From a virus (Duplodnaviria > Heunggongvirae > Uroviricota > Caudoviricetes), in the IMG/VR virus record IMGVR_UViG_651324052_000001, positions 32,603 through 96,602 of that record: a DNA stretch of 64,000 bases, one strand, 5' to 3'. This document shows, in pieces, positions 20,552 through 64,000 of this stretch (position 1 is its first letter; every line of letters starts with the position of its first letter). The notes below the pieces were generated by a model, which was not told where the DNA came from, did not search any database, and was given only the letters and a program-made list of their open reading frames with translations. The translations under genes and the position numbers were made by a program.

Positions 20552-21598
20552 TTAAGCGTCAGATAAAGAACCCTGTGTTACCTCTTTAATTCCATCTTTA
20601 TCAAAATACTTGCTAAATTCGTCTTCAGCAGTAAGATCATTGTAGATTTTTAACATCTCTGCGCTTTGCCAACCAAAAAATTCTTGGATAACGTGTGAAG
20701 GCAAATTTAAGCGATGTAGTTTGGTGCATGTGAAATGCCTCAGGCTGTGAAAATAGAAATCTTCGTTTAAAATTTCACTAAATTCACATGTCCATTCACT
20801 CAAATTTTTTCTTTGCCTATAACATTTATTATTGTTTTCATCTCTATAAGATGATACAAACATCCATTCAGATTCAATTCCATTTTGTTTTCTATACTCT
20901 AACCATGAATCTATATAAGGTTTTGCTCCATATAATACGAATTTATTTAACTGATGTCCTAATTTACCGAACCCTTTTGCTCTGACCTTATCAGTTTTCC
21001 ACATAGAATCATATACAAAATGGTCATCATTAAAGAATTCTACTTTCATCTGTAACAACTCACCTTTTCGCATTCCAGAGTAAGCAGCTATTGCAACGGC
21101 ACAAGCTTTTTCGAATTCTTTTCTGTTCACTAATTCCTGTAACAAGAAATCCACTTGTTCATCGGATAAAATAGTTTTTTCTCTAACAACTTCTTTTGCT
21201 GGGTTTTCAATTTTTCTTATGATCCCTCTGTAATTTTCAAACTCTTCTTCGTCATCTAAAACATTTTCAATGTAATTAGATAAAGAAGATAGACATGATT
21301 TAACTCTACGGATTCTGTTAGGACTCCAACCCCATGTATTTAATGCATGATTCTGGAATTTTGCAACTTCACGCTTTGTTAAATCAGCAAAGAATTTATT
21401 TTTGTTGTACTGTAAATTCCATACCCAAAATATATTTAGATCACTTCTATACGCAACAATGCTTTGAGGAGAGCGATCAATAGATTCCAAATACTCTAAC
21501 CAATCTTCTCCTAATTCTTTATTTTCAGGGTTTACTTGTTCTAATTTTTCAGAAGAAGTAATCTGATTATAAACTGTACTTCGTGCTATTTTAATCAC
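20552..21598 (-). CDS. Tyrosine recombinase (XerC-like) 1
   Basis: SGMRKGEL, RAKG, HSLRH, GW...IY; likely ATA start at 21589. Confidence 0.85.
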   Translation of the reverse strand: MIKIARSTVYNQITSSEKLEQVNPENKELGEDWLEYLESIDRSPQSIVAYRSDLNIFWVWNLQYNKNKFFADLTKREVAKFQNHALNTWGWSPNRIRRVKSCLSSLSNYIENVLDDEEEFENYRGIIRKIENPAKEVVREKTILSDEQVDFLLQELVNRKEFEKACAVAIAAYSGMRKGELLQMKVEFFNDDHFVYDSMWKTDKVRAKGFGKLGHQLNKFVLYGAKPYIDSWLEYRKQNGIESEWMFVSSYRDENNNKCYRQRKNLSEWTCEFSEILNEDFYFHSLRHFTCTKLHRLNLPSHVIQEFFGWQSAEMLKIYNDLTAEDEFSKYFDKDGIKEVTQGSLSDA

Positions 21599-31797: not shown

Positions 31798-32034
31798 TTC
31801 AAAATGTGTGGACAAATTTTGTTCACAAAATATCTTGTGCAGCGTAAGGTATTTTCTAGGGATACCTTTGCTGCATGTAATGTGATTGAAAAAATTATGT
31901 CTTCATTCACATCACCTCCATTTCTTTTTATTGAAACCTAGTTTTCATGTTGCTAATAATTGGTAGTGTGTTGTGTATATAAATTTTATTCACTGTTGTG
32001 CAATAGATTTTTTTAAACATCCCAATTAGATAAA

Positions 32035-46835: not shown

Positions 46836-46884
46836 ATTTTTCTACTTTTTAAATAGAATTATTACATATTAGGAGGAAAAAATA

Positions 46885-47121: not shown

Positions 47122-47254
47122 CAATAAGCGGAGATTTTCCGCTTATAAAAGTGGGCAATATGGATCATTTAGAGTATAGTTTTAATTCTAACTTGAACAT
47201 TGTCTTTTTTTATAAGCGGAAAAGTATACACAAGTAAAAAAGGAGGAAAATAGA

Positions 47255-47872: not shown

Positions 47873-47888
47873 AGAGGCGAAATAAACT

Positions 47889-48113: not shown

Positions 48114-48127
48114 AGGAGATTAAAAGA

Positions 48128-48421: not shown

Positions 48422-48519
48422 ATATTTGTAAACAGTTAGAAGGCATTAGTTATTATACTGATGTCTTTTATAGTGCTTACAAATAGGCATAAAAAAACGA
48501 AGTAAAGGAGAATAAAAAG

Positions 48520-49451: not shown

Positions 49452-49708
49452 CCTATATTACATTTTTTTACGGCTGATACTTGTCAAAGGGTATCGGCTG
49501 ATTTTAGAAACAACTTGAAAACATAGAATAGGAGAAAGAATAGATGTTTAAATTTATTAGCAAATTTGAATCAGACGGAAAAGATTTTTATATCGTGAGA
49601 ACAAAAGGCGGAGTTTCCATACTTACAGAATGGGAATACAGGAAAGTATGGGGAAACTACCACAGAAACAAGTGGATCAAATAATGATTTTATTAGGAGG
49701 AAACTGAA

Positions 49709-49924
49709 ATGACATTAGAAGAAATTTTAAATTTATTAGGATGTGAAAACCCGTTTCTTGAACAGATGGAAGGAGATATGGATAGACATAAACAACCTTT
49801 TTCAGATAATGGCATTATTGCATATGGAAAACTGATTGATATTTTATATGCGGTTGGAAATTTAACAAATAATGATGTAAATGACATTGTTGAAGCATTA
49901 GATAGTATCGCAAATAAAGAATAA
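49709..49924 (+). CDS. Early hypothetical protein
   Basis: 71 aa; stop abuts an 18-bp repeat. Confidence 0.55.
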   Translation: MTLEEILNLLGCENPFLEQMEGDMDRHKQPFSDNGIIAYGKLIDILYAVGNLTNNDVNDIVEALDSIANKE

Positions 49925-50173
49925 TGAAAAGATAATTTTATATGGAGGATAAAAGATGATGACAAGAGAACAGTTTGAAAACAACACAAGTTGGAAAATG
50001 AGCTATGAAGAGTTTCAAAAATGCGATTGTACACGGTGCAAAAAAGAAAATTGCCCACATAGAAAAGCATTTAGAAGAGTACCTGCCGTAGATGGAGGCT
50101 TAGGATTATGTCCTAATTTAAAATAAAACGTAGATTTTATAGGCACTATCGGGAAATGTTAGTGCCTTAATTA

Positions 50174-50509
50174 TTGGAAAATAAGGAGGGCTTAAACATG
50201 GAGAAGATGACCAAAGAATATGTTCTTCGTACATTAAGAGAAGAACACTTATGGAAACCAGGCGAGGCAGACACATTTGAAGCAACGGTGTATCAGAAGT
50301 GGGAATTTACACTAAAAAGAGAAGAAAAACATTATCTTCCATATAAATACTCTTTAACTGGAAAGAAAATTGGAACTCTTGAAACGTGGGCGAGAAGATA
50401 TAGAAGTATGGAAGAAGCTTTTTTACATATTGTAAATAGATTAAACGAAAATGCTGTGGTAAAAAATAAATACACTTATATAGAAGATTGGCTATTAGAA
50501 AATAAATGA
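50174..50509 (+). CDS. Early hypothetical protein
   Basis: About 103-111 aa; TGA lies inside the repeat. Confidence 0.55.
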   Translation: MENKEGLNMEKMTKEYVLRTLREEHLWKPGEADTFEATVYQKWEFTLKREEKHYLPYKYSLTGKKIGTLETWARRYRSMEEAFLHIVNRLNENAVVKNKYTYIEDWLLENK

Positions 50510-50713
50510 AAGCACGATTTTGTATGGAGGAAATAAATATGAAGAAACATAAAACAGACAAAATCTTATTAAGAAACAATGAGCGTAAGATGTGTGGTTT
50601 CCCATTACATAGAAAGAAAAGTAAAGGTCGAAGGTATTTGACAAGGTGCGAAGTAAAGGAAACAATAGACGCATTTTTAGACTATTGTAACAGAGATTAG
50701 GGAGGGAATAAAT

Positions 50714-51010
50714 ATGGAAATTAAAAATTTAGCACAGTTAAAACGAGTAATCAAAGAGGGACATAAATTTATTATTAGAAAACACTATATCAGATCAGAA
50801 TATGAGGGGCAGATTAGAAAGCCGAATGTAGTACAGACAAACGGGTTTTACAGTATTGAAGATGGAAAACCAGATAGCAAAATTACATTAGCCAATAATG
50901 GAAAAGGAAGTTGGATTGAATATGGAAAAGCTTCAGATTGGAAGTTTGAAAATGGTATTTGCAAACAGTCTTTTCGTGGTAGAGAGGTGTGGGAAATCGA
51001 ATTTATTTAA
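50714..51010 (+). CDS. Early hypothetical protein
   Basis: 98 aa, GGAGG SD. Confidence 0.6.
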   Translation: MEIKNLAQLKRVIKEGHKFIIRKHYIRSEYEGQIRKPNVVQTNGFYSIEDGKPDSKITLANNGKGSWIEYGKASDWKFENGICKQSFRGREVWEIEFI

Positions 51011-51040
51011 TGAAATATATTTCAAACGAAGGAAAGTATT

Positions 51041-51229
51041 ATGCCGGATATGAGAGAAAAAGTAAAAGAATATATTATGGAATTAGAAGAACAGATTGAC
51101 ATTCACGAAAAATGGTTGATTAAACACCAAAATGCTGATACTAAAGAAGAATTTATAGTAAAAGGAAGTCTTGCAACATTGGTAGAGGTAAAATGTGATT
51201 TACAAAACAGATTAGATGAGCTTATTTGA
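51041..51229 (+). CDS. Early hypothetical protein
   Basis: 62 aa coiled coil. Confidence 0.5.
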   Translation: MPDMREKVKEYIMELEEQIDIHEKWLIKHQNADTKEEFIVKGSLATLVEVKCDLQNRLDELI

Positions 51230-51444
51230 TGAAAGAACGCTTTTATCGGGAGAAAAATACTATGAAACAAGATTTATTACTATCGGAAAAAATTGTTGAT
51301 TGCTTATCTGATGGATATGATGATGAAGATAGAGAAGAAACAATTAGAATATTATTTAGAGAACTAACAGATATTTCAGGCGACAGTTTTCTAAAAACAG
51401 CTTTAATCAGATTGTGTGAAAGAATAGAAGAGTTGGAAGCGTAG
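51226..51444 (+). CDS. Early hypothetical protein (likely start 51261)
   Basis: SD GGGAG after the repeat. Confidence 0.5.
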   Translation: MMKERFYREKNTMKQDLLLSEKIVDCLSDGYDDEDREETIRILFRELTDISGDSFLKTALIRLCERIEELEA

Positions 51445-51456
51445 GAGGAAACAGTT

Positions 51457-52020
51457 ATGAAAGAATTAGAACAAAGATACATAGACATTTTAAAAGAAAA
51501 TGATTGGAATGTCTCTTATTATACAGATAATGGAATGGTAGAATTGGAAAAATATTCTCCTGCTGGGGAAGATTTTTTAATTATTGTAGAAGTAGAAAAT
51601 TTTCCGGAAGCAGTTAGAGAATACGCAAATGATTTTGATGCAAATGAACACGCAGCAATGTGGGTTGAAGCAAGAGGTAAGATAAGCGGAGTACCCGAAA
51701 GTATTAGGGAACTTATTGACGATGCAGAAGCAATACAAGATATGCTTGATGAATTAGCGTATGCATTAGAAAAAGATGAAAATAATAAAGAAAATCTGGA
51801 AGAACTAAAGCAGTACAAGGAAAACTATTATTACAGTGTTGAAGATATTGCAGAACAGTTGATTGATTTATCTAATTTAGGCATATCTGAGGATCTAAAG
51901 AAAGAATTAAGGGCAGGATTAGAGCATTTAAATGAAATGGCAGCGAAAGAATATAATAAGGATTGCTTCAGAGTGCTGTATAATGTGTTACTTGTAATTA
52001 CAGGAATGGAGGTATTGTAA
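51457..52020 (+). CDS. Early acidic hypothetical protein
   Basis: 187 aa; ELEKYSPAGEDF. Confidence 0.6.
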   Translation: MKELEQRYIDILKENDWNVSYYTDNGMVELEKYSPAGEDFLIIVEVENFPEAVREYANDFDANEHAAMWVEARGKISGVPESIRELIDDAEAIQDMLDELAYALEKDENNKENLEELKQYKENYYYSVEDIAEQLIDLSNLGISEDLKKELRAGLEHLNEMAAKEYNKDCFRVLYNVLLVITGMEVL

Positions 52021-52022
52021 CT

Positions 52023-52253
52023 ATGATGCTAAATGTTAGAACGTATAAAGTAAAAAGATCAGACGGAAATCCCGTATATAAAACATATCGTTATTCTTGT
52101 TTTGATAGTGCTTCCTCGATGGATGGAAAAACTTTTGAAGAAAAATTTAATGCTGCTATGAATATCTTGAAAGAGGAAGTTGATGAAGATAGAAGGAATA
52201 ATGAGGTAGACAAGTACGAACCTATTGTGATTGCAGATGTGTTTTTAAGTTGA
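52023..52253 (+). CDS. Early hypothetical protein
   Basis: 76 aa. Confidence 0.5.
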   Translation: MMLNVRTYKVKRSDGNPVYKTYRYSCFDSASSMDGKTFEEKFNAAMNILKEEVDEDRRNNEVDKYEPIVIADVFLS

Positions 52254-52760
52254 TGGAGGAAAATAATATGAGAGATTTACAAGTATATACAGACATATGT
52301 TTGAAAGAAGTTGAAGGAGCTGGGATTGAATATGGGAAAATTGAAGAATTTATTGTAAATACTAGGGCAATTAATAGATATGGAAGATGCACAAGAAAAC
52401 CAGGAGGAACATTTGTTATTCAGATTTCAAAATATCTTTTGGACGAGCGTGTTCCTGTAAATGAATTAAAAGACACGATCATCCATGAAATTTTACATAC
52501 TTGTAAAGATTGTTTTAATCATGGAAATGCATGGAAAAACGAAGCTGATATTATGAACAAAAAAATATGGATATAATATTCGTAGAACTGGCTCATGTAG
52601 CGATTTTGCAATGGTAGTAGAAGAAGAACATCCATATAAATATTTTATCGAGTGCAAAGGATGTGGAAAAATATATAAGAAGAGAAGAAAATGTAATCTC
52701 ACAGAACATCCTGGATGGTATAGATGTGGACGTTGTGGTGGAAAGTTGGAAGCGGTTTAA
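52250..52760 (+). CDS. SprT-like Zn metalloprotease with C-terminal Zn ribbon (extra A at 52559-52565)
   Basis: HEILH...HGNAWK; restored tail CKGCG...CGRCGG. Confidence 0.75.
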
Positions 52761-52778
52761 AGATAGTGGAAATAATTT

Positions 52779-53000
52779 ATGGAGAAGGTTATGAATAGAT
52801 TTGATGGGATATTAGGTAATGGAATAGATTTCGATATGAGTAAAATCTGTTCTTGTTGCAAGAAAATAAGCGAATGTGAGAAAAAATGTGCGAGATATTA
52901 TAGTTGCGACAATGTGGCTATGGCAAATGATGTTTTGAAAGAATACGAAGAAAGGGAACATTATGACATTAAGAGAATATCTAAAAGAACTAAAAATTGA
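52779..53000 (+). CDS. Small Cys-rich protein
   Basis: CSCC...C...C...C. Confidence 0.5.
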   Translation: MEKVMNRFDGILGNGIDFDMSKICSCCKKISECEKKCARYYSCDNVAMANDVLKEYEEREHYDIKRISKRTKN

Positions 53001-53322
53001 TCAGATTGAAGATGACACAGAATTTTGTGACAAGGAATACAATGCGATAATGGACTATTGCACAGAACGGAAATTCTTAATCACAGATGATGATTTAGCA
53101 TCTATTGTTAGTCGTGGTCTGAATGATAGCTTTGAATATAGACGTGCAGAATATATCAAGAATTTGTGGTTGGAATTTGGGAATGTTTCCATGAACCCTG
53201 AAACAAAATGCATTGAGGAAGAGTGGAACGGATTCGCCGCAGGATGGCATAGAACGTCAATCTGTGATTGGTTTGAGGAAAATTATGGTGTTAGTGTTGC
53301 GAAAGATTTGATGGGATTATAG
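52963..53322 (+). CDS. Early hypothetical protein
   Basis: 119 aa; WLEFGNVSMNPETKCIEEEW. Confidence 0.6.
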   Translation: MTLREYLKELKIDQIEDDTEFCDKEYNAIMDYCTERKFLITDDDLASIVSRGLNDSFEYRRAEYIKNLWLEFGNVSMNPETKCIEEEWNGFAAGWHRTSICDWFEENYGVSVAKDLMGL

Positions 53323-53332
53323 GAGAAAAAAT

Positions 53333-53722
53333 ATGGTGAATTTAGAGTTAATTTTTAAAGAACAAGAAAAGTATGTAGAAAAGATAATTGAAGATATTAG
53401 AAAAAACAATTTCTCTTGGGAAGTATTACAGTATATCAATAATAATTATGCTGAAATCGAGATAGAACATGGTGCTATGTCAGAATGGAACCAAGATAAA
53501 TACGAGGAATATCTTAAAACGTGCAACGAGCAAAAAGATTATTGTGAAATTCGAATTAACAGAGATTTTGTTTATAGATATATTAATGTACATAATATAT
53601 TGGAATTTGATAGATCATTGGATGATGATGAAGAAGAATGGGAAGAATACCGGGATTGCTATGAAGAATATTCTAGAAAAGAAAATGAATATCGTCTTGA
53701 TTATGTAGAATTTAAAAAATAA
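53333..53722 (+). CDS. Early acidic hypothetical protein
   Basis: 129 aa; stop inside the repeat. Confidence 0.55.
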   Translation: MVNLELIFKEQEKYVEKIIEDIRKNNFSWEVLQYINNNYAEIEIEHGAMSEWNQDKYEEYLKTCNEQKDYCEIRINRDFVYRYINVHNILEFDRSLDDDEEEWEEYRDCYEEYSRKENEYRLDYVEFKK

Positions 53723-53760
53723 AATCAGGATTTTGATTAGGAGAGAAAAGAGGTAAGGTA

Positions 53761-54252
53761 ATGAACTATAAAAAGATGGTAGTATGGAGTTGTGGGAATG
53801 AAACTGCAAAGACAGAAAAGATAAATATGATAGGATATATCTTCTGTTTTATTCTGCTTTGTATTTTACACACGATAACGTTTGTATGTAATCCCAATGA
53901 TGATAAGTCTATACATGTTACTATAAGAGAACATTTATTATATGGAATTATGTTTTTATGTTTAGTTGGTTGGCTTACAGCTTTGATGTTATTTATGATC
54001 AAAGATTCGTTTGACAATATTAAAGAAAACAAATTGATTTCTTTATATCTATATAAAATAGAGGATTTTGTAAAAATAGGAGAAATACCAGAAGATAAGA
54101 TAATATTGTTCTCGGATAAAAGAGGAGTTGTTTTAGCAGATAAAATATATGAAAACGAAAGTAAGCATTTCTCTTTTGGAGTGAAATCTTTTGGTGAGTT
54201 TGAGAAATATTATAATAAACATGCAGTAGATAGGCTGGAAATTGCCCAATAA
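53761..54252 (+). CDS. Two-TM membrane protein
   Basis: 163 aa; stop inside the repeat. Confidence 0.55.
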   Translation: MNYKKMVVWSCGNETAKTEKINMIGYIFCFILLCILHTITFVCNPNDDKSIHVTIREHLLYGIMFLCLVGWLTALMLFMIKDSFDNIKENKLISLYLYKIEDFVKIGEIPEDKIILFSDKRGVVLADKIYENESKHFSFGVKSFGEFEKYYNKHAVDRLEIAQ

Positions 54253-54319
54253 AGTCGGAATTTGATTAGGATGATTAATTATAAATAATAAAAAAATAAG
54301 ACCAACTTCATATATTGTT

Positions 54320-54529
54320 ATGTTTTGGAATAAAGACGGAACAAAGAAAATAAAAGAAGAGATATACCCTATGTATAAGTTTACGCTTGATGATGTTATC
54401 GTATTATTAAAAGGAAAAGAAGAAACATGCGATATTTATGAGTGTAGATTCTGGAAAAATAGAGGACGATATATTACAACTGGAAATACTTATATTTGGG
54501 ATGGATATGGTTGGAAATTACAAATGTAA
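54320..54529 (+). CDS. Early hypothetical protein
   Basis: 69 aa or fewer. Confidence 0.45.
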   Translation: MFWNKDGTKKIKEEIYPMYKFTLDDVIVLLKGKEETCDIYECRFWKNRGRYITTGNTYIWDGYGWKLQM

Positions 54530-54566
54530 TCAAAAATCTCGCATTTTATACTGGAGGGCAGATATT

Positions 54567-54794
54567 ATGAGCAAATGGAGCGAAATTAGATGTGACTTTT
54601 TTGATGAAAATGATAGAAGATATTGTGTAGATGGTTGGCAAACTTCCAATGATTGCGAAGAAGGGAAAACTATTGCTAAGATTAATCTAAAAAATAAATC
54701 TGTTGAGTATCTTGACCAAGATGCCAAAACAGATGAATATACTCAAGAGGTCATTAATGAGTTTTTAAAAAACGGATATGTGTTGACAGAATAA
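54567..54794 (+). CDS. Early hypothetical protein
   Basis: MSKWSEIRCDF..., GGAGG SD after the repeat. Confidence 0.55.
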   Translation: MSKWSEIRCDFFDENDRRYCVDGWQTSNDCEEGKTIAKINLKNKSVEYLDQDAKTDEYTQEVINEFLKNGYVLTE

Positions 54795-54845
54795 CAACAA
54801 TTTAGGATTTTATACATACGAACAGAAAGGTTAGAAGATAAAATT

Positions 54846-55172
54846 ATGAAATTAGTACAGGAAATTAGAAAGAATGATTTATTATCAAGTAACTGGGGGA
54901 TTTATGAACTATCTAAAGCTGAAGCGAATAAATATGGCAATAAATTTGCGTTATCGCAAGGTATATTTTCAGACTTTGGAATAAAAGAATTTGGGGCTGA
55001 CAAGTTATTGTCAAGATTAAGAAATGATCTCTATGAAGGTTTTTTTGAAACACAAAAAGAAGCTTATATGCAAGTTAAACTTGTAGAAATGAAGTGTAAA
55101 ATCGACAAGTTAGAGTACGCAGCAAAAGATTTAATAGAAGCAACGAAAATTAAAACACCAAAATGGTTTTAA
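54846..55172 (+). CDS. Early hypothetical protein
   Basis: 108 aa. Confidence 0.55.
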   Translation: MKLVQEIRKNDLLSSNWGIYELSKAEANKYGNKFALSQGIFSDFGIKEFGADKLLSRLRNDLYEGFFETQKEAYMQVKLVEMKCKIDKLEYAAKDLIEATKIKTPKWF

Positions 55173-55341
55173 AAGCAAATAAAGTTGAAATTTGATTGAA
55201 TAAAGGTGTAAATATGAGAGAAGTAATTTATAAAATGATTTATTTTGATGGAGCATGGTTTTATCAAAGAATTTCAGACGGAAAACTTATTAAGAGAATT
55301 TATTTCTTATAGAAAAATTTTACAAAATAGAGGAGGTTAAT

Positions 55342-55575
55342 ATGAATAAAAAAGAATTTTTAAATTACATAACTGATTTTGCTGCAAATACATTATGGAG
55401 CGATTTTAATGAAAAAGAGCGGTTGAGGGCATTATTTACATCATATTGTCTCGTTTATGGAGTAGATGCTGATACAAAGGAATGTGATGATATTTTATTC
55501 ATAATCAGAGAAGCGCTAGAATTTCAAGAAGATGTCGAGGAGTTTGAAAACTATATGATTGAGTTAATTGTGTAG
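55342..55575 (+). CDS. Early hypothetical protein
   Basis: 77 aa, GAGGAGG SD. Confidence 0.6.
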   Translation: MNKKEFLNYITDFAANTLWSDFNEKERLRALFTSYCLVYGVDADTKECDDILFIIREALEFQEDVEEFENYMIELIV

Positions 55576-55590
55576 AGGAGAATAGTAATT

Positions 55591-55791
55591 ATGAAAAGAC
55601 TTGGAAGGTATTCAGGAAGAATTTATGAGGAAAACGAAATCTGTATAATGGAAGAATGCGGAGTTTGTATTACAGATGAACAAGCAAAAGATGAAGAATG
55701 GATTTCAAAACATCATGTAGATGATTTAATGGAATGTATTACATGTGTAGGATGTCCACTTGCCCAAAGTGGAGTAATAGGAAAAAGATAA
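55591..55791 (+). CDS. Small Cys-containing protein
   Basis: 66 aa; stop inside a perfect repeat copy. Confidence 0.55.
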   Translation: MKRLGRYSGRIYEENEICIMEECGVCITDEQAKDEEWISKHHVDDLMECITCVGCPLAQSGVIGKR

Positions 55792-55814
55792 AACTCGTAT
55801 TTTATTTATGAAGG

Positions 55815-56117
55815 ATGATTGATATGTGTAGATATGTAGCCGATTTTTATATTGATTCTAAAACACTTGATTGGGTGACAAGAGAAGGCTGTCCTCAAAT
55901 TTTTAATGAATATGTATCTGATATTTTAGTCGATGCATTAGGTATTAATGGAAGTTCAAATTTATTTTGCAAGTGTAAGTATGGAGGATATAATCTATCA
56001 TGGATTTTAGATAACGGAAAGGAGTATGTTAAAACATTTTCGGAAGAAGAATTACTAGGTGCTTTGCGACATAAATTTGTTGATTGTAAACTAAATGTAA
56101 GTAAATTTAAACAATAG
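55815..56117 (+). CDS. Early hypothetical protein
   Basis: 100 aa. Confidence 0.5.
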   Translation: MIDMCRYVADFYIDSKTLDWVTREGCPQIFNEYVSDILVDALGINGSSNLFCKCKYGGYNLSWILDNGKEYVKTFSEEELLGALRHKFVDCKLNVSKFKQ

Positions 56118-56147
56118 ATGAAAATCTTTCAAAAGGAGTGGTAAAGT

Positions 56148-56384
56148 ATGAAAATAGAAAAAATAATTTGTGATTGTTGCGGAGAAGAAATTCCAAAAGT
56201 AAAAAAGAAAGATGTATTTGGAATTGAAAGAGAATATTATCGCATGGGAAAATTAAATTATGGAGAACATTTTACGGATGTTAACTGTTGTAATTTAGGT
56301 CTTGATTTATGTGAAAGATGTGCCGGAAAGATCAGTTTAGAGATGTATAAGACTAGAATGGAAATGTTAAGTGGTTTGAAATAA
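56148..56384 (+). CDS. Small Zn-ribbon protein
   Basis: CDCCG...DLCERC. Confidence 0.6.
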   Translation: MKIEKIICDCCGEEIPKVKKKDVFGIEREYYRMGKLNYGEHFTDVNCCNLGLDLCERCAGKISLEMYKTRMEMLSGLK

Positions 56385-56403
56385 GACGAGAGGGTGTAAG
56401 TAT

Positions 56404-56542
56404 AATGAAATTCTTACAGATTTTGCAAATGCTTTTAGCAACTATATTTATTATATTAACGCTTGGATTTGTTTCCATAGAACTTGAGTGGACAGATGGA
56501 ACGAGTTTTAGATATACAGGATGGAAAAGAAGAAGGAGATGA
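56404..56542 (+). CDS. Small membrane peptide
   Basis: MKFLQILQMLLATIFIILTLGF...RRRR*, TGA inside the repeat. Confidence 0.5.
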
Positions 56543-56576
56543 AAGTCGCATTTCAAATAATAACAATATAAAATAA

Positions 56577-56933
56577 TTGATGCATTCAGAGAATATACCT
56601 TTGAGTGCTTTTTTAATACAGGAGAAGAGGTGTGACAATATGTATGACGAATTGAAAGACATATCGTATATTTTTTACATAAATAGTAAGAGTGGTAAAT
56701 TACATACATGTAATATTTGCGATAAAGAAGAAGTAGACGATAAAGGCTATCCAAGATACAGAGCGCAATATGGAAACTGTCTGATTGCCTTACGAAATCA
56801 GAAGATAACAGATAGGTTATATCTAATGAAGGAAGAAACATTTAACAGCGTAAAGAGGAAATTTTGGCAGCTCGATAGATATCTTATGAAAGACTTCTTT
56901 GATCGTTATGCTGATAGAGTTGTGGAAAGATAG
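56577..56933 (+). CDS. Early hypothetical protein (likely start 56640)
   Basis: SD GAGGTG. Confidence 0.5.
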   Translation: MMHSENIPLSAFLIQEKRCDNMYDELKDISYIFYINSKSGKLHTCNICDKEEVDDKGYPRYRAQYGNCLIALRNQKITDRLYLMKEETFNSVKRKFWQLDRYLMKDFFDRYADRVVER

Positions 56934-57175
56934 CAGAAAGCCAATAAAAATAATAGAAAAAAAATCAAAGAGTTATTTCATTAATCTTTGGAATGGCTTA
57001 AAGTCTTTGTATGTCTGCGCTTTATACAAAGATTTGAACCCGATGTATTTTGATGAAGCAATAGAATACATTAAACATTGGGAATATAAAGAACAATAAA
57101 ATATTACATATAAATAAGAAGATTCTGGAGAATAAAAATCCAGGATCTTTTTTCAAAAGGAAGGAGTTATGTATT

Positions 57176-57484
57176 ATGATTTGGACATTATTTGTATTAG
57201 ACTATGATGGAACGTACAGTTGTAAACATGAAGAATACTACGGTGTAAGACCTTCAGTATATCAGATTCCATTGGATAAACAGCAAGAGGTTGAAATGTT
57301 TGCGAAGAAAGCTTCCAAAGAATTTAATGAAGGCGAAGACGTCTGCGAATCTATTGGAGATATTTTTGAAGGTTTTCTTGAAGAAAATAATATTAAATTT
57401 CATTGCATTGGAGATTTGAAACTTCGTTTTGGCGATAGACAGAAGGATTATCTTGCGGATTATATCCCTAGAGAGATTGTGTAA
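57176..57484 (+). CDS. Early hypothetical protein
   Basis: 102 aa, AAGGAG SD. Confidence 0.6.
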   Translation: MIWTLFVLDYDGTYSCKHEEYYGVRPSVYQIPLDKQQEVEMFAKKASKEFNEGEDVCESIGDIFEGFLEENNIKFHCIGDLKLRFGDRQKDYLADYIPREIV

Positions 57485-57496
57485 GGTGGTGAAATT

Positions 57497-58219
57497 TTGA
57501 GAAGAGAATGGACAGAAAAGGAAGTTAAGTATTTAAAAGAACATTATGGACAATATCCTGTAAAAGATATTGCAGAAAAACTCAAAAGAAGTTATGAATC
57601 TGTTCAAACAAAAGCAGGCAGGATTGGCATAAATTCCAATAGAAGTATCACTGCAAATAGAAGAAAGTGGACAGAACGAGAAGAAAAATACATGGAATCA
57701 AGATACTTATATCAACCGGTGGAAATTACAGCAAAACGACTAAAGAGATCAGTGTGTTCTGTAAAGAAAAAGGCGGCGAAATTAGGACTTAACAAATTCT
57801 ATGACATATTTTCAGCAAAACAGTTAGCGAAATGCTTTAATACTGATATATCTGTGGTTTTAAGATGGATTGAGAAATTTGATATGCCACATGATAGTAT
57901 AGATCTGAACGGAGTTATTCATTATGATATTGACTTGAAGAAGTTTTGGAAATGGACGGAAAATCATAAAGATATAATAAACTGGTCTAAATATGAATGT
58001 GGAACCTTGGCATTAGAACCTGAATGGGTACGACAAGAAAAAATGTCTTATGAATATAGTAACACAAGAGAAAAGTGGACAGATGAAGATTTGAGAAAAG
58101 TTAAATTACTTTTAAAAGCGGATAAAACCTATAAAGAAGTCGCAAAAGAGTTGGGAAGGACATATTACGGCATTCTTCATTTAATGAGGAGTGGTGTAGT
58201 ATATGGAAAAGTTAATTGA
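57497..58219 (+). CDS. Tandem Myb-like/HTH repeat DNA-binding protein
   Basis: Three WT-x-x-E repeats, each followed by IAEKLKRS-like HTH segments. Confidence 0.7.
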   Translation: MRREWTEKEVKYLKEHYGQYPVKDIAEKLKRSYESVQTKAGRIGINSNRSITANRRKWTEREEKYMESRYLYQPVEITAKRLKRSVCSVKKKAAKLGLNKFYDIFSAKQLAKCFNTDISVVLRWIEKFDMPHDSIDLNGVIHYDIDLKKFWKWTENHKDIINWSKYECGTLALEPEWVRQEKMSYEYSNTREKWTDEDLRKVKLLLKADKTYKEVAKELGRTYYGILHLMRSGVVYGKVN

Positions 58220-58271
58220 GAAAATTGTAGAAGTATGATAATATGAAAAGAAAAAGAGGAGGTATTATATC

Positions 58272-58463
58272 ATGGGAGCAGCTTTATTTATTGCAGCAAT
58301 TTTTTTACTTTGTAAAGGACTTAATTGGGTAGCTAATTTACCGGAGGAACATTACAAGAACACACTTACACCGGAGCAAAGATCAGATTATGTTTTTAGA
58401 AAAAATCTGAATAAATACAAAAATAATTTTATAATGAATGTGTTTTTGGAGACTAAGTATTAA
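58272..58463 (+). CDS. Small membrane protein
   Basis: 63 aa, hydrophobic N-terminus. Confidence 0.45.
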   Translation: MGAALFIAAIFLLCKGLNWVANLPEEHYKNTLTPEQRSDYVFRKNLNKYKNNFIMNVFLETKY

Positions 58464-58718
58464 TTTGCTTAGTCTCTTTTATATTACAAGAGAGAATATA
58501 TAGGTGAAAATATATCAGAAAGAAGGAATTTATATGAAGAATTTTATTATTGGGAACATGTATTTTGTTCAGGTGACAAGTCACATGAAGGACTATGTTA
58601 GTTATGTGGGAAGAAAAGGAAATTTCTATGTGTTTCAGAAAGGTGTCGTACAGTATTATCTGAAAGAATGTCATTTGTTTAATGCTGTCCCGGTGATGAA
58701 TCGAATTGCCATGATTTC

Positions 58719-59144
58719 TTGATGTGTGATATACTCATGATAAGAGGTGATGGTCGTATGGAGAAGTTTCATCGTATGAATTTAGAAGAAATTCAAAAAT
58801 GCAACGACAAGCAAATTGAAGATATAATCTTATATACAGACAATATTAGAAAGTATGATTTTCGAGCGGAATGTCTGTATTGGATGTGTATGTTGGAGGT
58901 GAACATACGAACAGATCAGGATGTAGAGCATACATGGATTAAGTGTATTGCTAATATAAGGAATAAAGATGGAGATATAATATTCCAGTATGGAAAAGAT
59001 TATATGGTGTTTGTACTTGGCTTGGTTCCAATTGTTTTTACTGGAGATTTATTTCCATATATATATTCCATAAAAGAAGAAGACCATCGTTGCATATGGA
59101 AGTATTTTACAGAGAGTGAATTAAAAAGTATATATTTAATGTAA
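58719..59144 (+). CDS. Early hypothetical protein
   Basis: About 130-141 aa. Confidence 0.5.
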   Translation: MMCDILMIRGDGRMEKFHRMNLEEIQKCNDKQIEDIILYTDNIRKYDFRAECLYWMCMLEVNIRTDQDVEHTWIKCIANIRNKDGDIIFQYGKDYMVFVLGLVPIVFTGDLFPYIYSIKEEDHRCIWKYFTESELKSIYLM

Positions 59145-59276
59145 ATAGTTAGAAGTCGTTATCGTTTTGATAGCGACTTTTGTAGTGTTTATAGTTGAGA
59201 GACCAGAGAATAATATCCTGGTCATTTTTTATGCAGAAATGGGGGTAATAGTTATGAAAAAATAAAAAGAGAAGAT

Positions 59277-59501
59277 TTGACCATTGGAGAACATGAAAGA
59301 CTGATTTATCCAAGTGTTTTTACTTACTTGACGAGGAACAATAAACCGACAAGACAAGAATATTACAGAACTGATAATGGGGAGGTATGGGAAATCAGTC
59401 ATTTTGAAAATGAAAAATCAGAAGAATTTGGCAAAAGAATGGATGCATTAGAGTATTTGAGTAACAAATTGGATCTGGCAGAAGCATTTGGTGTATTATA
59501 G
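59277..59501 (+). CDS. Early hypothetical protein
   Basis: 74 aa. Confidence 0.45.
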   Translation: MTIGEHERLIYPSVFTYLTRNNKPTRQEYYRTDNGEVWEISHFENEKSEEFGKRMDALEYLSNKLDLAEAFGVL

Positions 59502-59515
59502 AGGAGATAATAGGT

Positions 59516-60511
59516 ATGTGTTACAAAGTTGAAAAGCAAAGAAAGATTGAACAAAAATTAGCTGAGGAATTAAAAAATGTTCCGGGTTTTATCGCAGATT
59601 TTTTTGATAGATACAAGTCATCAGCAACAAAAAAGATTAACTGGATCTATATCAGAGACATGCTTAATTGGATGTTATCAAATGGATGTATCAAGAAGGA
59701 CAGTATTTCAAATATAGTAGAAGAGGATATGAATGGAATCACGAGCAATAATGTGATCAAATATCTTAATGAGCTGAAAAACGGCATATCAGGCAGAGCT
59801 AATTCGTTGGACTCAATCAATACTAAGAAAAATGTATTTAGTGCATTTTGGAATTATTTAAGACAGAACAAATGTGTAGAGGAGAATATTATTGCTCATA
59901 TACCAAGTAACTTGTATAAGTCAGAGAAAAAATTCAAAGAAGTAGAAATTCCAACAGATGAAGAAGTGGAAAAGTTTCTAATAAGCATCACAACTGGCAA
60001 TAAGAATGAGTTTAATATTATTAGAAATATTGCTATCGTGCAGCTTATAAAAGGAAGCGGGATTCGATCAGAAGAATTAATTAATATGGATGTTTCAGAT
60101 TTACGTTTATATGAAGAAGATAGACCATATATGATGGTTTTAGGAAAGGGAAATATCCAGGAGTATGATAAGGTTTATATGTCAGAACAAGCAAGAATAA
60201 ATATGGAAGAATACTTAAAAATCAGAAGTCTATTTGTAAATGAAAGAGAAATCAAAAATGAAGCGCTGTTTCTATCAAATGAGAATAATAGATTAAGTAA
60301 AGGTGCTATCACAGGTTTTTTTCGAAAGTATTCTGATGAAACAATTTATCCTCATATGCTTAGACATTGGGTTGGAAGTAAGTTGTATCAGGAAACAAAG
60401 GATATTGTACTTGTTCAAAGGCAACTAAGGCATAAAAACCTTGAAACCGCAGCCAGATATTATGTACACATGGATGAGTCTGCAATTGCAAATGCTGTAC
60501 TTGCGCTATGA
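59516..60511 (+). CDS. Tyrosine recombinase (XerC-like) 2, intact catalytic set
   Basis: GSGIRSEEL (R), LGKGN (K), PHMLRH (H-x-x-R), LRHK (H), ARYY (Y). Confidence 0.9.
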   Translation: MCYKVEKQRKIEQKLAEELKNVPGFIADFFDRYKSSATKKINWIYIRDMLNWMLSNGCIKKDSISNIVEEDMNGITSNNVIKYLNELKNGISGRANSLDSINTKKNVFSAFWNYLRQNKCVEENIIAHIPSNLYKSEKKFKEVEIPTDEEVEKFLISITTGNKNEFNIIRNIAIVQLIKGSGIRSEELINMDVSDLRLYEEDRPYMMVLGKGNIQEYDKVYMSEQARINMEEYLKIRSLFVNEREIKNEALFLSNENNRLSKGAITGFFRKYSDETIYPHMLRHWVGSKLYQETKDIVLVQRQLRHKNLETAARYYVHMDESAIANAVLAL

Positions 60512-60551
60512 TTTATGTTAAAATAACAATTGTTGGAGGAGTTAAATCGAT

Positions 60552-60713
60552 ATGAAAAATTACATGAATGAACCAGTAGAGTACAACTGGACAGACAAAG
60601 ATATATTAGATGAATTTCAAAAAGTCAAAGATAAAAAGAAAGTTGCAAAAGTGTATGACATTACAGTGCAGCAGGTCACTGAAATTTTGAAAGGAGATAA
60701 ATGCTATGAATAA
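60552..60713 (+). CDS. Small HTH-like protein
   Basis: 53 aa, GGAGG SD; KKVAKVYDITVQQVTEIL. Confidence 0.5.
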   Translation: MKNYMNEPVEYNWTDKDILDEFQKVKDKKKVAKVYDITVQQVTEILKGDKCYE

Positions 60714-60980
60714 AAAAGTTATTGTTTATAAATTGCAAAATGAAAAATCAGCAAAAGAATATGATGAAATATTATTGAAGTTGGAAAAGAATATGAATTT
60801 CCTGTAAATGGGAAGTGCGTTATGCGCTCAAACTGCTATCAGCTTGTAGGAGATGATGGTAAAATTCTTTACGGAACCGGTTTTCCTATTGGATATGCTC
60901 GTGACGTGGATGATAATGAATATAGTGTATTCCTTGAAAGAAGAGGCATTGTTTTGTATTTGCGGTTTCAGGATCGATAA
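60706..60980 (+). pseudogene. Small ORF with 1-nt frameshift near 60767
   Basis: One added A restores YDENIIEVGKEYEFPV...FQDR*. Confidence 0.45.
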
Positions 60981-61010
60981 GAGTATCAAAGAGGCAAATA
61001 GGGCTTAATT

Positions 61011-61346
61011 ATGGATAAAAATGAATTATATACAGCGTCAGAAAAGAAGATTATAGACGCATACGAAGCATTTGGATCAATTAAGAAAACGTCTTCAGAA
61101 ACAGGATATTCTTGGAATAAAGTTGTTAAAACTCTTTCTTCACATGGTTACATTCTATCAGAAACGCATGCGGAAATATTAAACAAATATCATAATGGAA
61201 TGAGTGTTGAAAAAATTGCTACACAATTAGAATTAAATAGAAAAACTGTACAAGCATATATACCGAGAAAGAGACCTTTGTATAATGAAGAACAATCTCC
61301 AAATGCTTTAAGAATTAAAAAGTGTCGTGAAAAGCATACAATTTAG
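61011..61346 (+). CDS. HTH DNA-binding protein
   Basis: GMSVEKIATQLELNRKTVQAY. Confidence 0.7.
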   Translation: MDKNELYTASEKKIIDAYEAFGSIKKTSSETGYSWNKVVKTLSSHGYILSETHAEILNKYHNGMSVEKIATQLELNRKTVQAYIPRKRPLYNEEQSPNALRIKKCREKHTI

Positions 61347-61383
61347 GTAGAAAATAAAATTGAACAAATAGAGAGGTATAGTT

Positions 61384-61905
61384 ATGTATAAATATGAAGT
61401 AGGACAATGTATAGAAAACTTTAAAAATCATGAAGAAGGTGTGCAATTTGACATTTCTGATGATGGGGCAACAATGCTTGTATTTTTTGAAACTCCAACA
61501 CAGAATGAAATTGAACAATTTAAATCAGGGGAAAAATTTGAAATTCGTTTCATAGTATTGAATGATGTTATTATGATTACAACTAAAATTGGAAATCTGA
61601 ATTGGATGGATGCACCATACACACCTCATTTAAGTAAGGATCTTACAAAATATCAGATTCCAAACGAAGGAGAAGGTTTGGGATTAACACTATATTTAGT
61701 GGATACGGCGACAGGAGAAATCAAAAGTATAAGATTCATGAGCTTGTCAGAAAGATTTACGAGAAAGTTATTTGGCTGCACTATGGAAATAAAGATGAAA
61801 GAATTCGATAAAAAACAATACTTGATGAAATTATCTGATATTTTTTGTAAATATGATACAAAACAAATTGTAAAAATGAGTTCAGAGTATTGTAAAATAA
61901 ATTAA
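61384..61905 (+). CDS. Conserved phage hypothetical protein
   Basis: 173 aa. Confidence 0.6.
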   Translation: MYKYEVGQCIENFKNHEEGVQFDISDDGATMLVFFETPTQNEIEQFKSGEKFEIRFIVLNDVIMITTKIGNLNWMDAPYTPHLSKDLTKYQIPNEGEGLGLTLYLVDTATGEIKSIRFMSLSERFTRKLFGCTMEIKMKEFDKKQYLMKLSDIFCKYDTKQIVKMSSEYCKIN

Positions 61906-61921
61906 AAAAGGATGTGTTTAA

Positions 61922-62677
61922 ATGAAATATACAATAACAATGAGTTGTGGTCATGAAGAACGAATAGAGTTATTTGGATCCACAAAAGAAAGAGATAGAA
62001 AAATAGATTATTTTATGTCTCAAGGGCTGTGTTCGGAATGTTACAAAAAGAAAATGCAAGAAGAGGCTGAAAAAGAAGGATTTAATTTTAACTCTTGTGT
62101 GCTCCCTTATATCAGTAATGAAGATGGGAGCATTTTGCTTTCTGTATGGTTTAGTGGAAACACAAAACCGTTTAAAGATGATATTAAGTCATTAGGAGGC
62201 TATAGTTGGAGCGAAAGAGAGACGGGAAATGATAGCTATTTGTTGTCTAAACCTATGATGTGTTGGAACAAAGTTATTAAACTTGATGAGTTGGAAGATG
62301 AAATTATAAAAGCTGAATCTATTGGTGCAAATAATATTGTCACTGAGAAAAATTTATTTGAGATATGTCATTATCAAATAGCATTGAAAAAACAAAAGAA
62401 ATGGAATGAAAAGAAAGCTATAATAGAATCCATAGAGAAACCCACAGTGCCAGAGGTTTTAAAAGGATGTACATGGAATCAAAAAATATACGGTAGATCA
62501 GGTGGTTACACAATTTACCCAAATGGCAATAAGATTTCCATTACAGACGATCAGAAGAAAGAAATTGAAAATTATTTGAAATTAAAAAAGAATATCAAAA
62601 TAAAATTGAAATTATTAACAAGATGCCGTAATGAAAGACATGAAAAATACATCGTTGATAAATGTGTGAAATATTGA
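61922..62677 (+). CDS. Hypothetical protein with N-terminal Zn finger
   Basis: SCGH...LCSEC; probable true end 62631 if one A is added at 62584-62589. Confidence 0.55.
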   Translation: MKYTITMSCGHEERIELFGSTKERDRKIDYFMSQGLCSECYKKKMQEEAEKEGFNFNSCVLPYISNEDGSILLSVWFSGNTKPFKDDIKSLGGYSWSERETGNDSYLLSKPMMCWNKVIKLDELEDEIIKAESIGANNIVTEKNLFEICHYQIALKKQKKWNEKKAIIESIEKPTVPEVLKGCTWNQKIYGRSGGYTIYPNGNKISITDDQKKEIENYLKLKKNIKIKLKLLTRCRNERHEKYIVDKCVKY

Positions 62678-62710
62678 ATGAGTTTAGATAATTGAGGAAC
62701 GGGAAAAATA

Positions 62711-63400
62711 ATGAAAGTTGAATTTAATGAAAAGAATGCAAAGGTCGAGGGCAATAACTTAATTATTGAATTAACAGAAAGCATAAAGCACAGCTTAAGA
62801 ATTCAATCAAAACGTCTTTGCGAATTTAATGTTGGTGATGAGATTATCGATGATGCTGGCAAAGAATGGTATGTAGTAGAACAAGACTTTGAGAATAATA
62901 GGACGAAAGTATGGATGAAAGATATTTCCGGTGAACAATATGTATTTGATAGGAAAACTAATGATTTTAGTAAGTCTGAAATTAAAAGAATTTTAAATGA
63001 TGAAAAAGGAGAAGTCTTAAATGACATTTATAATGGATTTGGGGAAAAGAATGTGCTTGTTGATAAGGTGGATTTATGGTCTCTAAATGGGAATGGCACT
63101 TATGGAAAATGTAAATGCAAAGTACATTTAGGGACTTTTGATGATTATAGGAATGCCAAAAAGAATGGCATGTTTTTAATTGCAACAGGAACGGATGATT
63201 ATTCATTTTGGTTAGATACACCATCTACCGCTAATGTTAGAGATGAAAGTGAAGAATGGCATTCTAACTATGTTGCAATTGTAGACATAAAAGGAGGAAT
63301 AACAAATGATTTCAATACCGGCAAAAATGGAATTCGTCCGTTTTTAACTTTGAACTCAGAAACAGTAGTATCGTATAGGTGTGATATACAATGGTTATAA
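62711..63400 (+). CDS. DUF6273-like protein
   Basis: FSKSEIKRILN...FWLDTP...GIRPFLTL. Confidence 0.6.
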   Translation: MKVEFNEKNAKVEGNNLIIELTESIKHSLRIQSKRLCEFNVGDEIIDDAGKEWYVVEQDFENNRTKVWMKDISGEQYVFDRKTNDFSKSEIKRILNDEKGEVLNDIYNGFGEKNVLVDKVDLWSLNGNGTYGKCKCKVHLGTFDDYRNAKKNGMFLIATGTDDYSFWLDTPSTANVRDESEEWHSNYVAIVDIKGGITNDFNTGKNGIRPFLTLNSETVVSYRCDIQWL

Positions 63401-63459
63401 ATTACAATTAAAAGGTAACTTAGATATATAATCATAAATAAAATAGGTAATGAATAACG

Positions 63460-63663
63460 ATGAAACAAATTGAAAAATTTAAAATTATTGTAAATAATAT
63501 AAGTGATTCTTCAGAAATGGCGGGGTTTTTAGATGGATTTTACATTGCTGCTTCATTGTTTTGCAAAGAGAATTGTCCGAACAAAGTGATTTTTGAAAAT
63601 GGGCGAATCAAAGATATAACTACATGTGGGATGATAGAATTCCTTGAAAGTGAAGTTGAATGA
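63460..63663 (+). CDS. Early hypothetical protein
   Basis: 67 aa; TGA inside the repeat. Confidence 0.5.
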   Translation: MKQIEKFKIIVNNISDSSEMAGFLDGFYIAASLFCKENCPNKVIFENGRIKDITTCGMIEFLESEVE

Positions 63664-63690
63664 AAGATTAATCTTAAGAAAGGTGATAAG

Positions 63691-63930
63691 ATGAATTTAG
63701 ATGTTCTTATTGAACAAATTAAGTATTTGTATATAGATGCAACAGAAATAGGGTTTGACAGTATTGTGATTGCTATTGATACTGATCTGGGTAACACATA
63801 TCATATAAATGATACGGAAGAAGGATTTCAATGTGATTTATTCGATTATGTATTTGATGATTTGGACGATATAGTTTTTCAATTATATGATGAAATGCAG
63901 GGAAATGTAGTAGATATTCGAATTGAGTGA
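63691..63930 (+). CDS. Small acidic hypothetical protein
   Basis: 79 aa, AAAGGTG SD. Confidence 0.55.
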   Translation: MNLDVLIEQIKYLYIDATEIGFDSIVIAIDTDLGNTYHINDTEEGFQCDLFDYVFDDLDDIVFQLYDEMQGNVVDIRIE

Positions 63931-63959
63931 ACTACCCACCGCCTAAAGGTAGTGGCTTC
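63927..63959 (-). mobile_element. Solo IS200/IS605 right-end-like hairpin
   Basis: Minus strand GAAGCCACTACCTTTAGGCGGTGGGTAGTTCAC, same architecture as the IS end at 36615-36649. Confidence 0.65.
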
Positions 63960-64000
63960 TGTCTGAAATTTTATAAAAGATTGATTTTAAAGGAGTATGT

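Follow-up and report, generated by a model that had tools for sequence, protein, structure and literature searches.

Ordered 18-bp palindromes with position-specific centres as probable cassette-exchange joints in the early region of a Lachnospiraceae phage family

Introduction

Tyrosine recombinases exchange strands across the centre of their sites and need identical centres in the two partners (reviewed in PMC5357621). In the Xer/dif systems, such as XerH-difH of Helicobacter and XerS-difSL of streptococci, inverted A/T-rich arms of 10-11 bp surround a 6-bp exchange centre, and a single dif site per chromosome serves dimer resolution. The Helicobacter pylori site difH reads ATGAAAA-CTGCAC-TTTTCAA (PMC3325230); base-specific reading by XerH is confined to the inner 5 bp of each arm, and the 6-bp centre is barely touched (PMC5241119). 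Here we analyse a window of 64,000 nucleotides (bases 32603-96602 of the 161,307-bp IMG/VR virus record IMGVR_UViG_651324052_000001, about 32% G+C), to which all positions refer unless another source is named, and within it an 18-bp palindrome, ATRAAA-N6-TTTYAT, that recurs between small genes. This element has the same layout as difH and almost the same inner arms; however, it is present about 30 times per genome, each time with its own centre and between accessory genes, its conserved arms measure 6 bp, and these sites are known from sequence alone.

The minus strand of the window carries late and structural genes, including those for the portal protein, the tape-measure protein and a split phage RNA polymerase, and a long plus-strand run of small genes begins near 43.5 kb. 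Related phages were found as proviruses or contigs from uncultured Lachnospiraceae/Eubacterium genomes. Phage mosaicism is usually ascribed to selection acting on the products of rare exchange, either illegitimate or driven by homology. Functions in host takeover and anti-defence are usually found among early accessory genes. We present evidence that the palindromes are, with high confidence, the joints at which early-gene cassettes of this phage family are exchanged.

Results

Sites keep one order and join unrelated flanks

The close set of relatives consisted of 34 loci of 21 kb each, retrieved with the tyrosine recombinase encoded at 59516-60511 as a probe (recombinases 82-98% identical). 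These loci are strongly mosaic, being alignable to this genome over just 30-66% of each, and the same 18-mers recur among them, including their 6-nt centres (hereafter addresses; Table 1). Fourteen types of centre followed one order in the 35 loci, with 960 concordant site pairs and 0 discordant: TAATGA, AGATAA, GCACGA, GAACGC, TCAGGA, TCGGAA, CTCGTA and GTCGCA, then a conserved core with the recombinase, and then GATTAA, GATTGA, TATAGG, TCTAAG, TTTAAC and TGTCGA. The DNA on one or both sides of the shared site cores was often unrelated between loci, and the presence of four-gamete quartets revealed reassortment of flanks at the site. Slots between two fixed addresses held 7-13 alternative contents, the short slots measuring 180-970 bp.

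When exact 12-40-mers shared by pairs of loci with unrelated flanks were ranked in a blind search, motif cores came first. The sole other high-ranking island, TTCGTCCGTTTT, was rejected as a joint, being a conserved protein motif in a diverged gene. The 12-nt site cores of the reference were intact in distant loci at a mean of 57%, compared to 10.6% for 12-mers of the recombinase gene and 4.6% for the conserved core; that is, site centres are kept intact about 5-fold better than 12-mers of the conserved recombinase gene.

A distant set of 16 further large relatives was found via the portal protein. The addresses TAATGA, TTTAAC and CTCACG are common to this genome and to G003 and G004, whose recombinase is just 33-37% identical. 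Genomes G005, G006 and G008 have identical arms with different addresses, which follow one order among all three and have unrelated flanks on one or both sides. A profile search with the recombinase alignment led to two Lachnospiraceae/Eubacterium metagenome-assembled genomes (MAGs), whereas an earlier search with the recombinase itself led to none. Neither megablast nor tblastn found a close relative among deposited phage genomes, and a scan of viral contigs for site 14-mers was dropped, its matches being mostly due to chance.

Table 1. Sites and neighbouring elements (positions in the window unless a locus is named; BLAST segments are those of relatives; EM, expectation-maximisation motif search; PWM, position weight matrix score)
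Feature	Position	Strand	Evidence
Junction site, centre TAATGA (ATCAAATAATGATTTTAT)	49676..49693	+	EM; PWM 15.1; core in 25/26 distant loci; metagenome contig pieces stop at 49693
Junction site, centre AGATAA	49924..49941	+	Strict pattern, EM; 11 left/13 right flank families, 25 combinations, 6 four-gamete quartets; core in 26/26 distant loci
Junction site, centre CGTAGA, then hairpin	50123..50140	+	Strict pattern, EM; PWM 16.9
Junction site, centre GCACGA	50506..50523	+	EM; 10 left/11 right flank families, 19 combinations; contig pieces stop at 50520, 50532
Junction site, centre GAACGC	51229..51246	+	Strict pattern, EM; pig-gut contig matches 51228-51246 alone here, as island
Junction site, centre TCAGGA	53719..53736	+	EM; 7 left/9 right flank families; pig-gut contig matches 53716-53734 alone
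Junction site, centre TCGGAA	54249..54266	+	EM; 8 left/10 right flank families; contig pieces begin at 54248, 54252
Junction site, centre CTCGCA, degenerate left arm AAAAAT	54532..54549	+	EM; PWM 12.7
Junction site, centre TTAGGA, degenerate left arm AACAAT	54796..54813	+	EM; PWM 12.1
Junction site, centre TTGAAA	55179..55196	+	EM; BLAST segments begin at 55178; contig pieces begin at 55177, 55182
Junction site, centre CTCGTA	55788..55805	+	Strict pattern, EM; 8 left/6 right flank families; contig piece stops at 55802
Junction site, centre GTCGCA, last of upstream array	56539..56556	+	EM; 10 left/7 right flank families; BLAST segments of 6 relatives begin at 56537-56539; contig joint 56536
Terminator-like hairpin and T run, closing cassette operon	56582..56616	+	Hairpin scan
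240-aa protein, helix-turn-helix regions at both termini, within conserved core; possible alternative binder	57497..58219	+	Pfam, PHROG matches
Tyrosine recombinase of Xer-like type, 331 aa; enzyme candidate for this subgroup	59516..60511	+	PF00589 match, E = 3e-22
Junction site, centre GATTAA, degenerate right arm	63660..63677	+	EM; BLAST segments stop at 63672, begin at 63676 in several relatives
Junction site, centre GATTGA, absent from earlier list	63973..63990	+	One-mismatch scan, EM; BLAST segments begin at 63973; centre type in 27/35 loci
Single site in minus-strand block, candidate junction	31931..31948	-	ATGAAA-ACTAGG-TTTCAA on minus strand, then GGAGGTG; PWM 14.0
Second Xer-like tyrosine recombinase, 348 aa, late block; alternative candidate enzyme	20552..21598	-	Matches in all family members tested
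Short tyrosine recombinase inside early array of G006 (276-316 aa class, catalytic domain only)	L245:9570-10400	-	
Short tyrosine recombinase inside early array of G009 (same class)	L243:18326-19276		

The joint lies inside the centre and coincides with lost gene adjacency

Among sites of one type, variation at positions 1-3 and 6 tracked the left flank family and variation at positions 13-18 the right one. Ungapped identity stopped 3-7 nt outside the centre in most pairs of loci, and all recombined partners had the same centre. Each arm thus segregates with its own gene, which places the joint inside the central 6 bp. The identity shared at many joints amounted to 9-12 nt only.

BLAST segment ends, counted on this genome alone, were not enriched at intergenic spacers with the motif, because many cassettes have no homologue on either side of the site, so that no end is recorded. 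An adjacency test was performed on all loci against all, in which we asked, for every spacer with at least one neighbouring gene present in the other locus, whether the neighbours were still adjacent. Adjacency was lost in 86% of the comparisons at motif spacers of the upstream array compared to 25-30% at spacers without the motif, and in 50% compared to 28% in the downstream array. Independent evidence came from gut metagenomes (pig, dog and others), whose assembled contigs were aligned to positions 49500-57000. These contigs broke at 49693, 49923/49938, 50520/50532, 54248/54252, 55177/55182, 55802 and 56536, and one contig from pig gut matched solely two 19-nt sites, 51228-51246 and 53716-53734, amid unrelated DNA.

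The motif is concentrated in the early block of the phage family

An earlier note on this DNA had listed 13 sites, all of which are present (13/13), and had spoken of about 12 copies of ATRAAA-N6-TTTYAT, a figure that holds for the degenerate motif but not for the strict pattern. The latter occurs 4 times in the window against 0.61 expected, and the motif with one mismatch 22 times against 10.3 expected; neither count was reached in any of 100 shuffles. In the whole 161-kb record the strict motif was found 15 times, compared to 2 for a reversed-pattern control. An expectation-maximisation (EM) motif search on 80 plus-strand intergenic spacers, taken from called genes and trimmed of the ribosome-binding site, converged unprompted on the same 18-mer in about 31 of them (11.7 bits) and added the sites at 49676 and 63973. 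With the position weight matrix (PWM), 20 plus-strand sites scored 14 or more, compared to 1.75 in shuffles, and nearly all high-scoring sites lay within the non-coding 13% of the genome.

The information of the PWM resides in positions 1-6 and 13-18, with little at 7-12 apart from a weak y/r preference at 7 and 12, a profile that agrees with the reading of the inner 5 bp by XerH. The ATGAAA/ATAAAA arms exceeded background at a gap of 6 nt only. The stop codon of the upstream gene overlaps the left arm or sits within a few bases of the site start, and the next ribosome-binding site follows 0-6 nt beyond the right arm, which is the layout of site, ribosome-binding site, open reading frame and site that the note had described. 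Among 149 distinct site contexts in relatives, the stop codon was present in 133, and stop codon plus ribosome-binding site in 99. The proposal that the sites bound cassettes also stood, since gain, loss and replacement among relatives map onto them in the flank families, the adjacency test and the contigs, a test that had been proposed beforehand.

The motif is nearly missing from the minus-strand late block and concentrated in the early block on the plus strand. Its density outside the prophage in two host genomes was about 5 per Mb, equal to the control level, compared to 93 per Mb in the phage (about 17-fold). When relatives were scanned, as the note had suggested, sites were found to recur among the 34 close loci, and all distant relatives (16/16) proved enriched in the strict motif (7-19 matches compared to 0-2 for the control). 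One strict match in the G009 group, at L243:4469-4486 in G009, looks by eye like the anticodon arm of a tRNA, with the T-loop-like sequence GGTTCAATTCC just downstream; part of the motif excess of that group therefore does not represent junction sites.

The sites probably act as double-stranded DNA elements within an apparently promoterless array

The two arms did not covary: at positions 3/16 (Fisher p = 0.82), A-C and G-T combinations occurred no less often than A-T and G-C. Folding of the 18-mers yielded a mean energy of -0.7 kcal/mol, and a search of the sites against Rfam gave no match. Given the lack of covariation and the almost complete lack of folding energy, an RNA hairpin was rejected, and the symmetric consensus, whose halves vary independently and keep a fixed spacing, suggests recognition of double-stranded DNA by a dimer or by two monomers.

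A scan of 46000-64000 for promoter-like hexamer pairs found 110 compared to 98 expected, that is, no excess. Terminator-like hairpins on the plus strand of 49500-56500 were limited to two weak 6-bp stems (51555 and 54945), and a strong one follows the last upstream site at 56582. With no promoter excess and few, weak terminators, the cassettes thus seem to lack promoters of their own and to belong to a single operon. Further downstream, terminator-like hairpins at 59145-59276 directly precede a small open reading frame (59277-59501) and the recombinase gene; one was scored by the scan (59150-59182) and a second was recognised by eye (GACCAG...CTGGTC, then a T run). Because of these hairpins immediately upstream, the recombinase gene may be insulated from read-through of the early operon.

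Candidate proteins and their distribution

The genome encodes three tyrosine recombinases, and no serine recombinase was found in it; 2-5 tyrosine recombinases were present per genome tested. Alignment of the 59516-60511 product to XerD and XerH showed R, K, H-x-x-R, H and Y all in place, which substantiates the complete R-K-H-R-H-Y set claimed before. Its best PDB match was XerH, the PDB sequence search giving Xer proteins only. Among NCBIfam models, XerS matched best, over the full length and below the cut-off (129 bits compared to 267), followed by XerA, XerC and XerD; the integron integrase model TIGR02249 gave 30.3 bits for a cut-off of 265. In the 20552-21598 product, the XerH alignment showed R, H-x-x-R, W at the position of the second histidine, and Y, the lysine not being assigned.

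All 34 close loci encode the 59516-60511 recombinase, as does a clade in which it is 62-66% identical; sites are present throughout, and motif and layout are unchanged in that clade (Table 2). No homologue was found in 14/16 distant relatives. The 20552-21598 recombinase was the only one matched in 16/16 distant relatives, with 61-72% identity in 12 of them and 22-28% in the other 4. The short recombinases of G006 and G009 are 28% identical to each other and have no significant similarity to the 331-aa protein; unrelated recombinases inside the arrays of different groups suggest, therefore, that an array-embedded recombinase is kept by non-orthologous replacement. Homologues of the helix-turn-helix (HTH) protein were not found in G001 and G002 either. 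No single phage protein tracked the arrays in all subgroups, as both the 331-aa recombinase and the 240-aa HTH protein failed to do so.

Table 2. Sites and candidate proteins in subgroups of the phage family
Group	Sites	59516-60511 homologue	HTH protein (57497-58219)	Other array recombinase
This genome and 34 close loci	14 junction-type (this genome)	Yes	Yes (this genome only checked)	None (this genome)
62-66% identity clade	Present	Yes	Not detected within ±10 kb, nor in the two host MAGs	
G003, G004	5 each	Distant, 33-37% identity	Not found	
G005, G006, G008	13 (G006)	None	Yes, 50% identity	Short, 276 aa
G009 group	2 (G009)	None	Not found	316 aa, related to short type (28% identity, G009)

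The conserved late-block recombinase gene is directly preceded, in six genomes of the G009 group, by a perfect site, ATAAAACCAAGATTTTAT, after which comes the box AACCACAATATATGGT (site at about G009:41763; L247, G009:C1:39500-44500). This genome has a similar box, AAACACAACATATAGT, after a TCTCGA site at genome position 103908 (window coordinate 71306, past the window end). Site and box may together form a type of promoter with the palindrome as its upstream element.

Other features of the window

Among the cassette proteins tested, no informative family match was obtained besides one SprT-like metalloprotease domain, in the cassette at 52268-52576 (Pfam E = 6.6e-7). In all six relatives with listed BLAST segments (6/6), about 1 kb of additional DNA is present at 56948-56952, where this genome probably has a deletion. 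That point lies inside two weak overlapping open reading frames (56640-56933 and 56908-57099) and is flanked by motif-like 18-mers at 56886 and 56964. Between the late and early blocks, a gene for an IS605-family OrfB/TnpB (Cas12f-like) protein was located at 35468-36583, a similar gene being present in relative L160. The phage also has a gene for a Y-family (ImpB/MucB/SamB) translesion DNA polymerase, at 38424-39938.

Discussion

Exact, addressed and ordered joints, kept about 5-fold better than 12-mers of the conserved recombinase gene, suggest that early accessory genes have an exchange mechanism of their own. We tentatively propose a natural cassette exchange in which about 30 heterospecific mini-dif sites per genome would let co-resident phages trade early genes singly and in register by means of a tyrosine recombinase. 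The early operon or operons of this Lachnospiraceae phage family would be split into exchangeable promoterless cassettes by the 18-bp palindromes, the arms ATRAAA and TTTYAT being common to every site and the position-specific 6-bp centre serving as its address. When two related genomes meet, exchange would take place between sites of the same address, inside the centre, and each arm would remain with its own gene, so that the left-hand stop codon, the right-hand ribosome-binding site and the order of slots would stay intact. Intervening genes would not be deleted by the sites, because all addresses within one genome differ.

Arms that stay with their own flank, centres shared between partners and differing within a genome, and a fixed order are the footprint expected of tyrosine-recombinase chemistry. 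The geometry that the earlier note had recognised, with inverted 6-bp arms and a 6-bp spacer, was borne out, including exchange within the spacer. As in Xer sites, inverted arms enclose a centre of 6-8 bp, exchange falls inside that centre, and a recombinase with all six catalytic residues is encoded nearby at 59516-60511. That a tyrosine recombinase catalyses the exchange is, on these sequence features, a serious possibility, a little short of an even call, and we give about the same weight to the view that the process would be conservative site-specific recombination by an Xer-type enzyme of this class on double-stranded DNA. Candidate enzymes would be the 59516-60511 product, the family-wide 20552-21598 product, the non-orthologous array recombinases of other subgroups and host Xer. 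We consider it rather unlikely, from its distribution, that the catalysing enzyme is the 59516-60511 product itself.

Several observations weigh against this proposal. The link between the sites and the 59516-60511 recombinase, which the earlier note had drawn, holds in the close loci and the 62-66% clade, but is weakened by G005, G006 and G008, which have the full site system and no homologue of this protein; their arrays hold the short non-orthologous tyrosine recombinase instead, and identical arms combined with different enzymes argue for some other common factor. The conserved arms extend over only 6 bp, compared to 11 bp in classical Xer sites. A minority of joints fall beyond the ribosome-binding site and not in the site. 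In the count of segment ends, many mosaic breaks of the family fell at spacers without the motif, therefore ordinary recombination also reshapes the region. Finally, the joints may have arisen by exchange through short homology (9-18 bp) followed by selection.

A possible, if on the whole unlikely, alternative is that the palindromes are operators of a dimeric phage protein, such as the dual-HTH product of 57497-58219, which would regulate or insulate the early operon, exchange being a by-product of short homology through general or phage-encoded recombination. Independent half-sites with a fixed 6-bp gap are typical of HTH dimers; however, the sites lie between stop codon and ribosome-binding site within the operon and not at promoters. 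The HTH gene belongs to the conserved core and has its 50%-identical homologue in the sole distant subgroup with dense arrays and no 59516-60511 recombinase, and junction-type sites number 14 in this genome and 13 in G006, both with the HTH protein, compared to 2-5 in genomes without it; yet G003, G004 and the 62-66% clade have junction sites, and no HTH homologue was detected in them. Regulatory repeats that mediate shuffling have a precedent in the promoter-early stem-loop (PeSL) elements of T4-type phages (PMC2839356, PMC4122927), and the breaks at motif-less spacers also speak for this reading, whereas the 9-12 nt of identity at many joints are far below the usual requirement of homologous recombination. 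The roughly 5-fold better preservation of position-specific centres is left unexplained by an operator.

Action of the host Xer machinery (XerC/D or a single Xer) on the sites, which the phages would exploit as IMEX (integrative mobile elements exploiting Xer) do, seems improbable. It would account for identical arms across subgroups with non-orthologous phage recombinases and for the Xer-type 6-bp centre, and it has precedents in IMEX elements and in the pdif modules of Acinetobacter plasmids (PMC5357621, PMC6449649). However, the motif was not enriched in the two host genomes outside the prophage, host Xer normally requires 11-bp arms, and the best dif-like candidates of the hosts have the canonical XerD arm TTATGTAAACT, unlike TTTYAT, although this was a weak search with 2-3 mismatches and equal counts in the control.

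An element of the mRNA, such as a small AU hairpin or A-rich/U-rich signals between cistrons for termination-reinitiation, ribosome loading or RNase processing, that became a handy joint merely through its conservation is very improbable, for although a location precisely between stop codon and ribosome-binding site, confined to the coding strand of a single operon block, would suit it, the arms do not covary, folding is negligible, Rfam gave no match, the perfectly symmetric consensus with independent halves indicates recognition of double-stranded DNA, and the conservation of addresses would go unexplained. A recombinase-fold repressor like MrpR is not favoured by the intact catalytic residues of the 59516-60511 product, its exclusive PDB matches to Xer proteins and the location of the sites away from promoters.

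If natural cassette exchange as proposed above is true, accessory genes in these phages would have a dedicated, site-specific form of 'sex' that is neither an integron nor mosaicism driven by homology. Should a recombinase be responsible, this would constitute a new natural organisation of phage gene flow, provide ready orthogonal short recombination sites for genome engineering, and give a simple rule to predict cassette boundaries in uncultivated gut phages.

Comparison with known systems

Beyond Xer/dif itself, several described systems resemble this one in part. The pdif sites and dif modules of Acinetobacter plasmids likewise consist of many Xer-type sites that bound discrete accessory modules, whose combinations differ between related replicons (PMC6449649, PMC13141974). 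They have, however, distinct 11-bp XerC and XerD arms and modules between oppositely oriented sites, whereas the phage arms are symmetric and short, the order of centres is fixed, and the sites separate single promoterless genes of one operon in a Bacillota phage replicon. PeSL elements are also short, intergenic and placed beside variable early genes in hyperplastic regions, where they mark gain, loss and replacement (PMC2839356, PMC4122927). Unlike these composites of early promoter and stem-loop terminator, thought to supply homology for general recombination, the phage sites measure 18 bp, show no promoter excess and no hairpin, and have position-specific centres.

Integron attC sites, including the attC clusters reported from phages (PMC9892861), share with the phage sites the promoterless single-gene cassettes in one transcription unit, the site after each stop codon and the nearby tyrosine recombinase. 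An attC site is an imperfect palindrome 57-141 bp long, has paired R''/L'' and L'/R' boxes, recombines with attI as a folded single strand and lets cassette order change, while the phage sites are short, unstructured and invariant in order, and neither attC structure, nor IntI, nor variable cassette order was found here. Thus the earlier description of the array as integron-like found no support, given the 18-bp sites, the missing arm covariation and the 30 bits obtained for a cut-off of 265 with IntI; nor did cassette shuffling, as the slot order is fixed (960 concordant, 0 discordant).

In the SPBRE/MrpR (YopR) system of the Bacillus phage SPbeta, too, a large temperate Bacillota phage combines a short repeat, dispersed over its early region, with a gene for an integrase-fold protein (PMC10516654). 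There, about ten promoters carry the 15-bp SPBRE motif, and the recombinase-fold protein that binds it is a catalytically inactive repressor; here, in contrast, catalytic residues are kept and the sites lie off promoters, at recombination joints.

The literature searched contained neither a phage with short heterospecific sites in a fixed order nor a natural multi-site equivalent of heterospecific cassette exchange. The engineered form of the latter, with lox or FRT sites, has common arms, differing centres and in-register swaps without deletion, as do the phage sites, and it requires matched centres, a dependence that the phage sites would appear to share.

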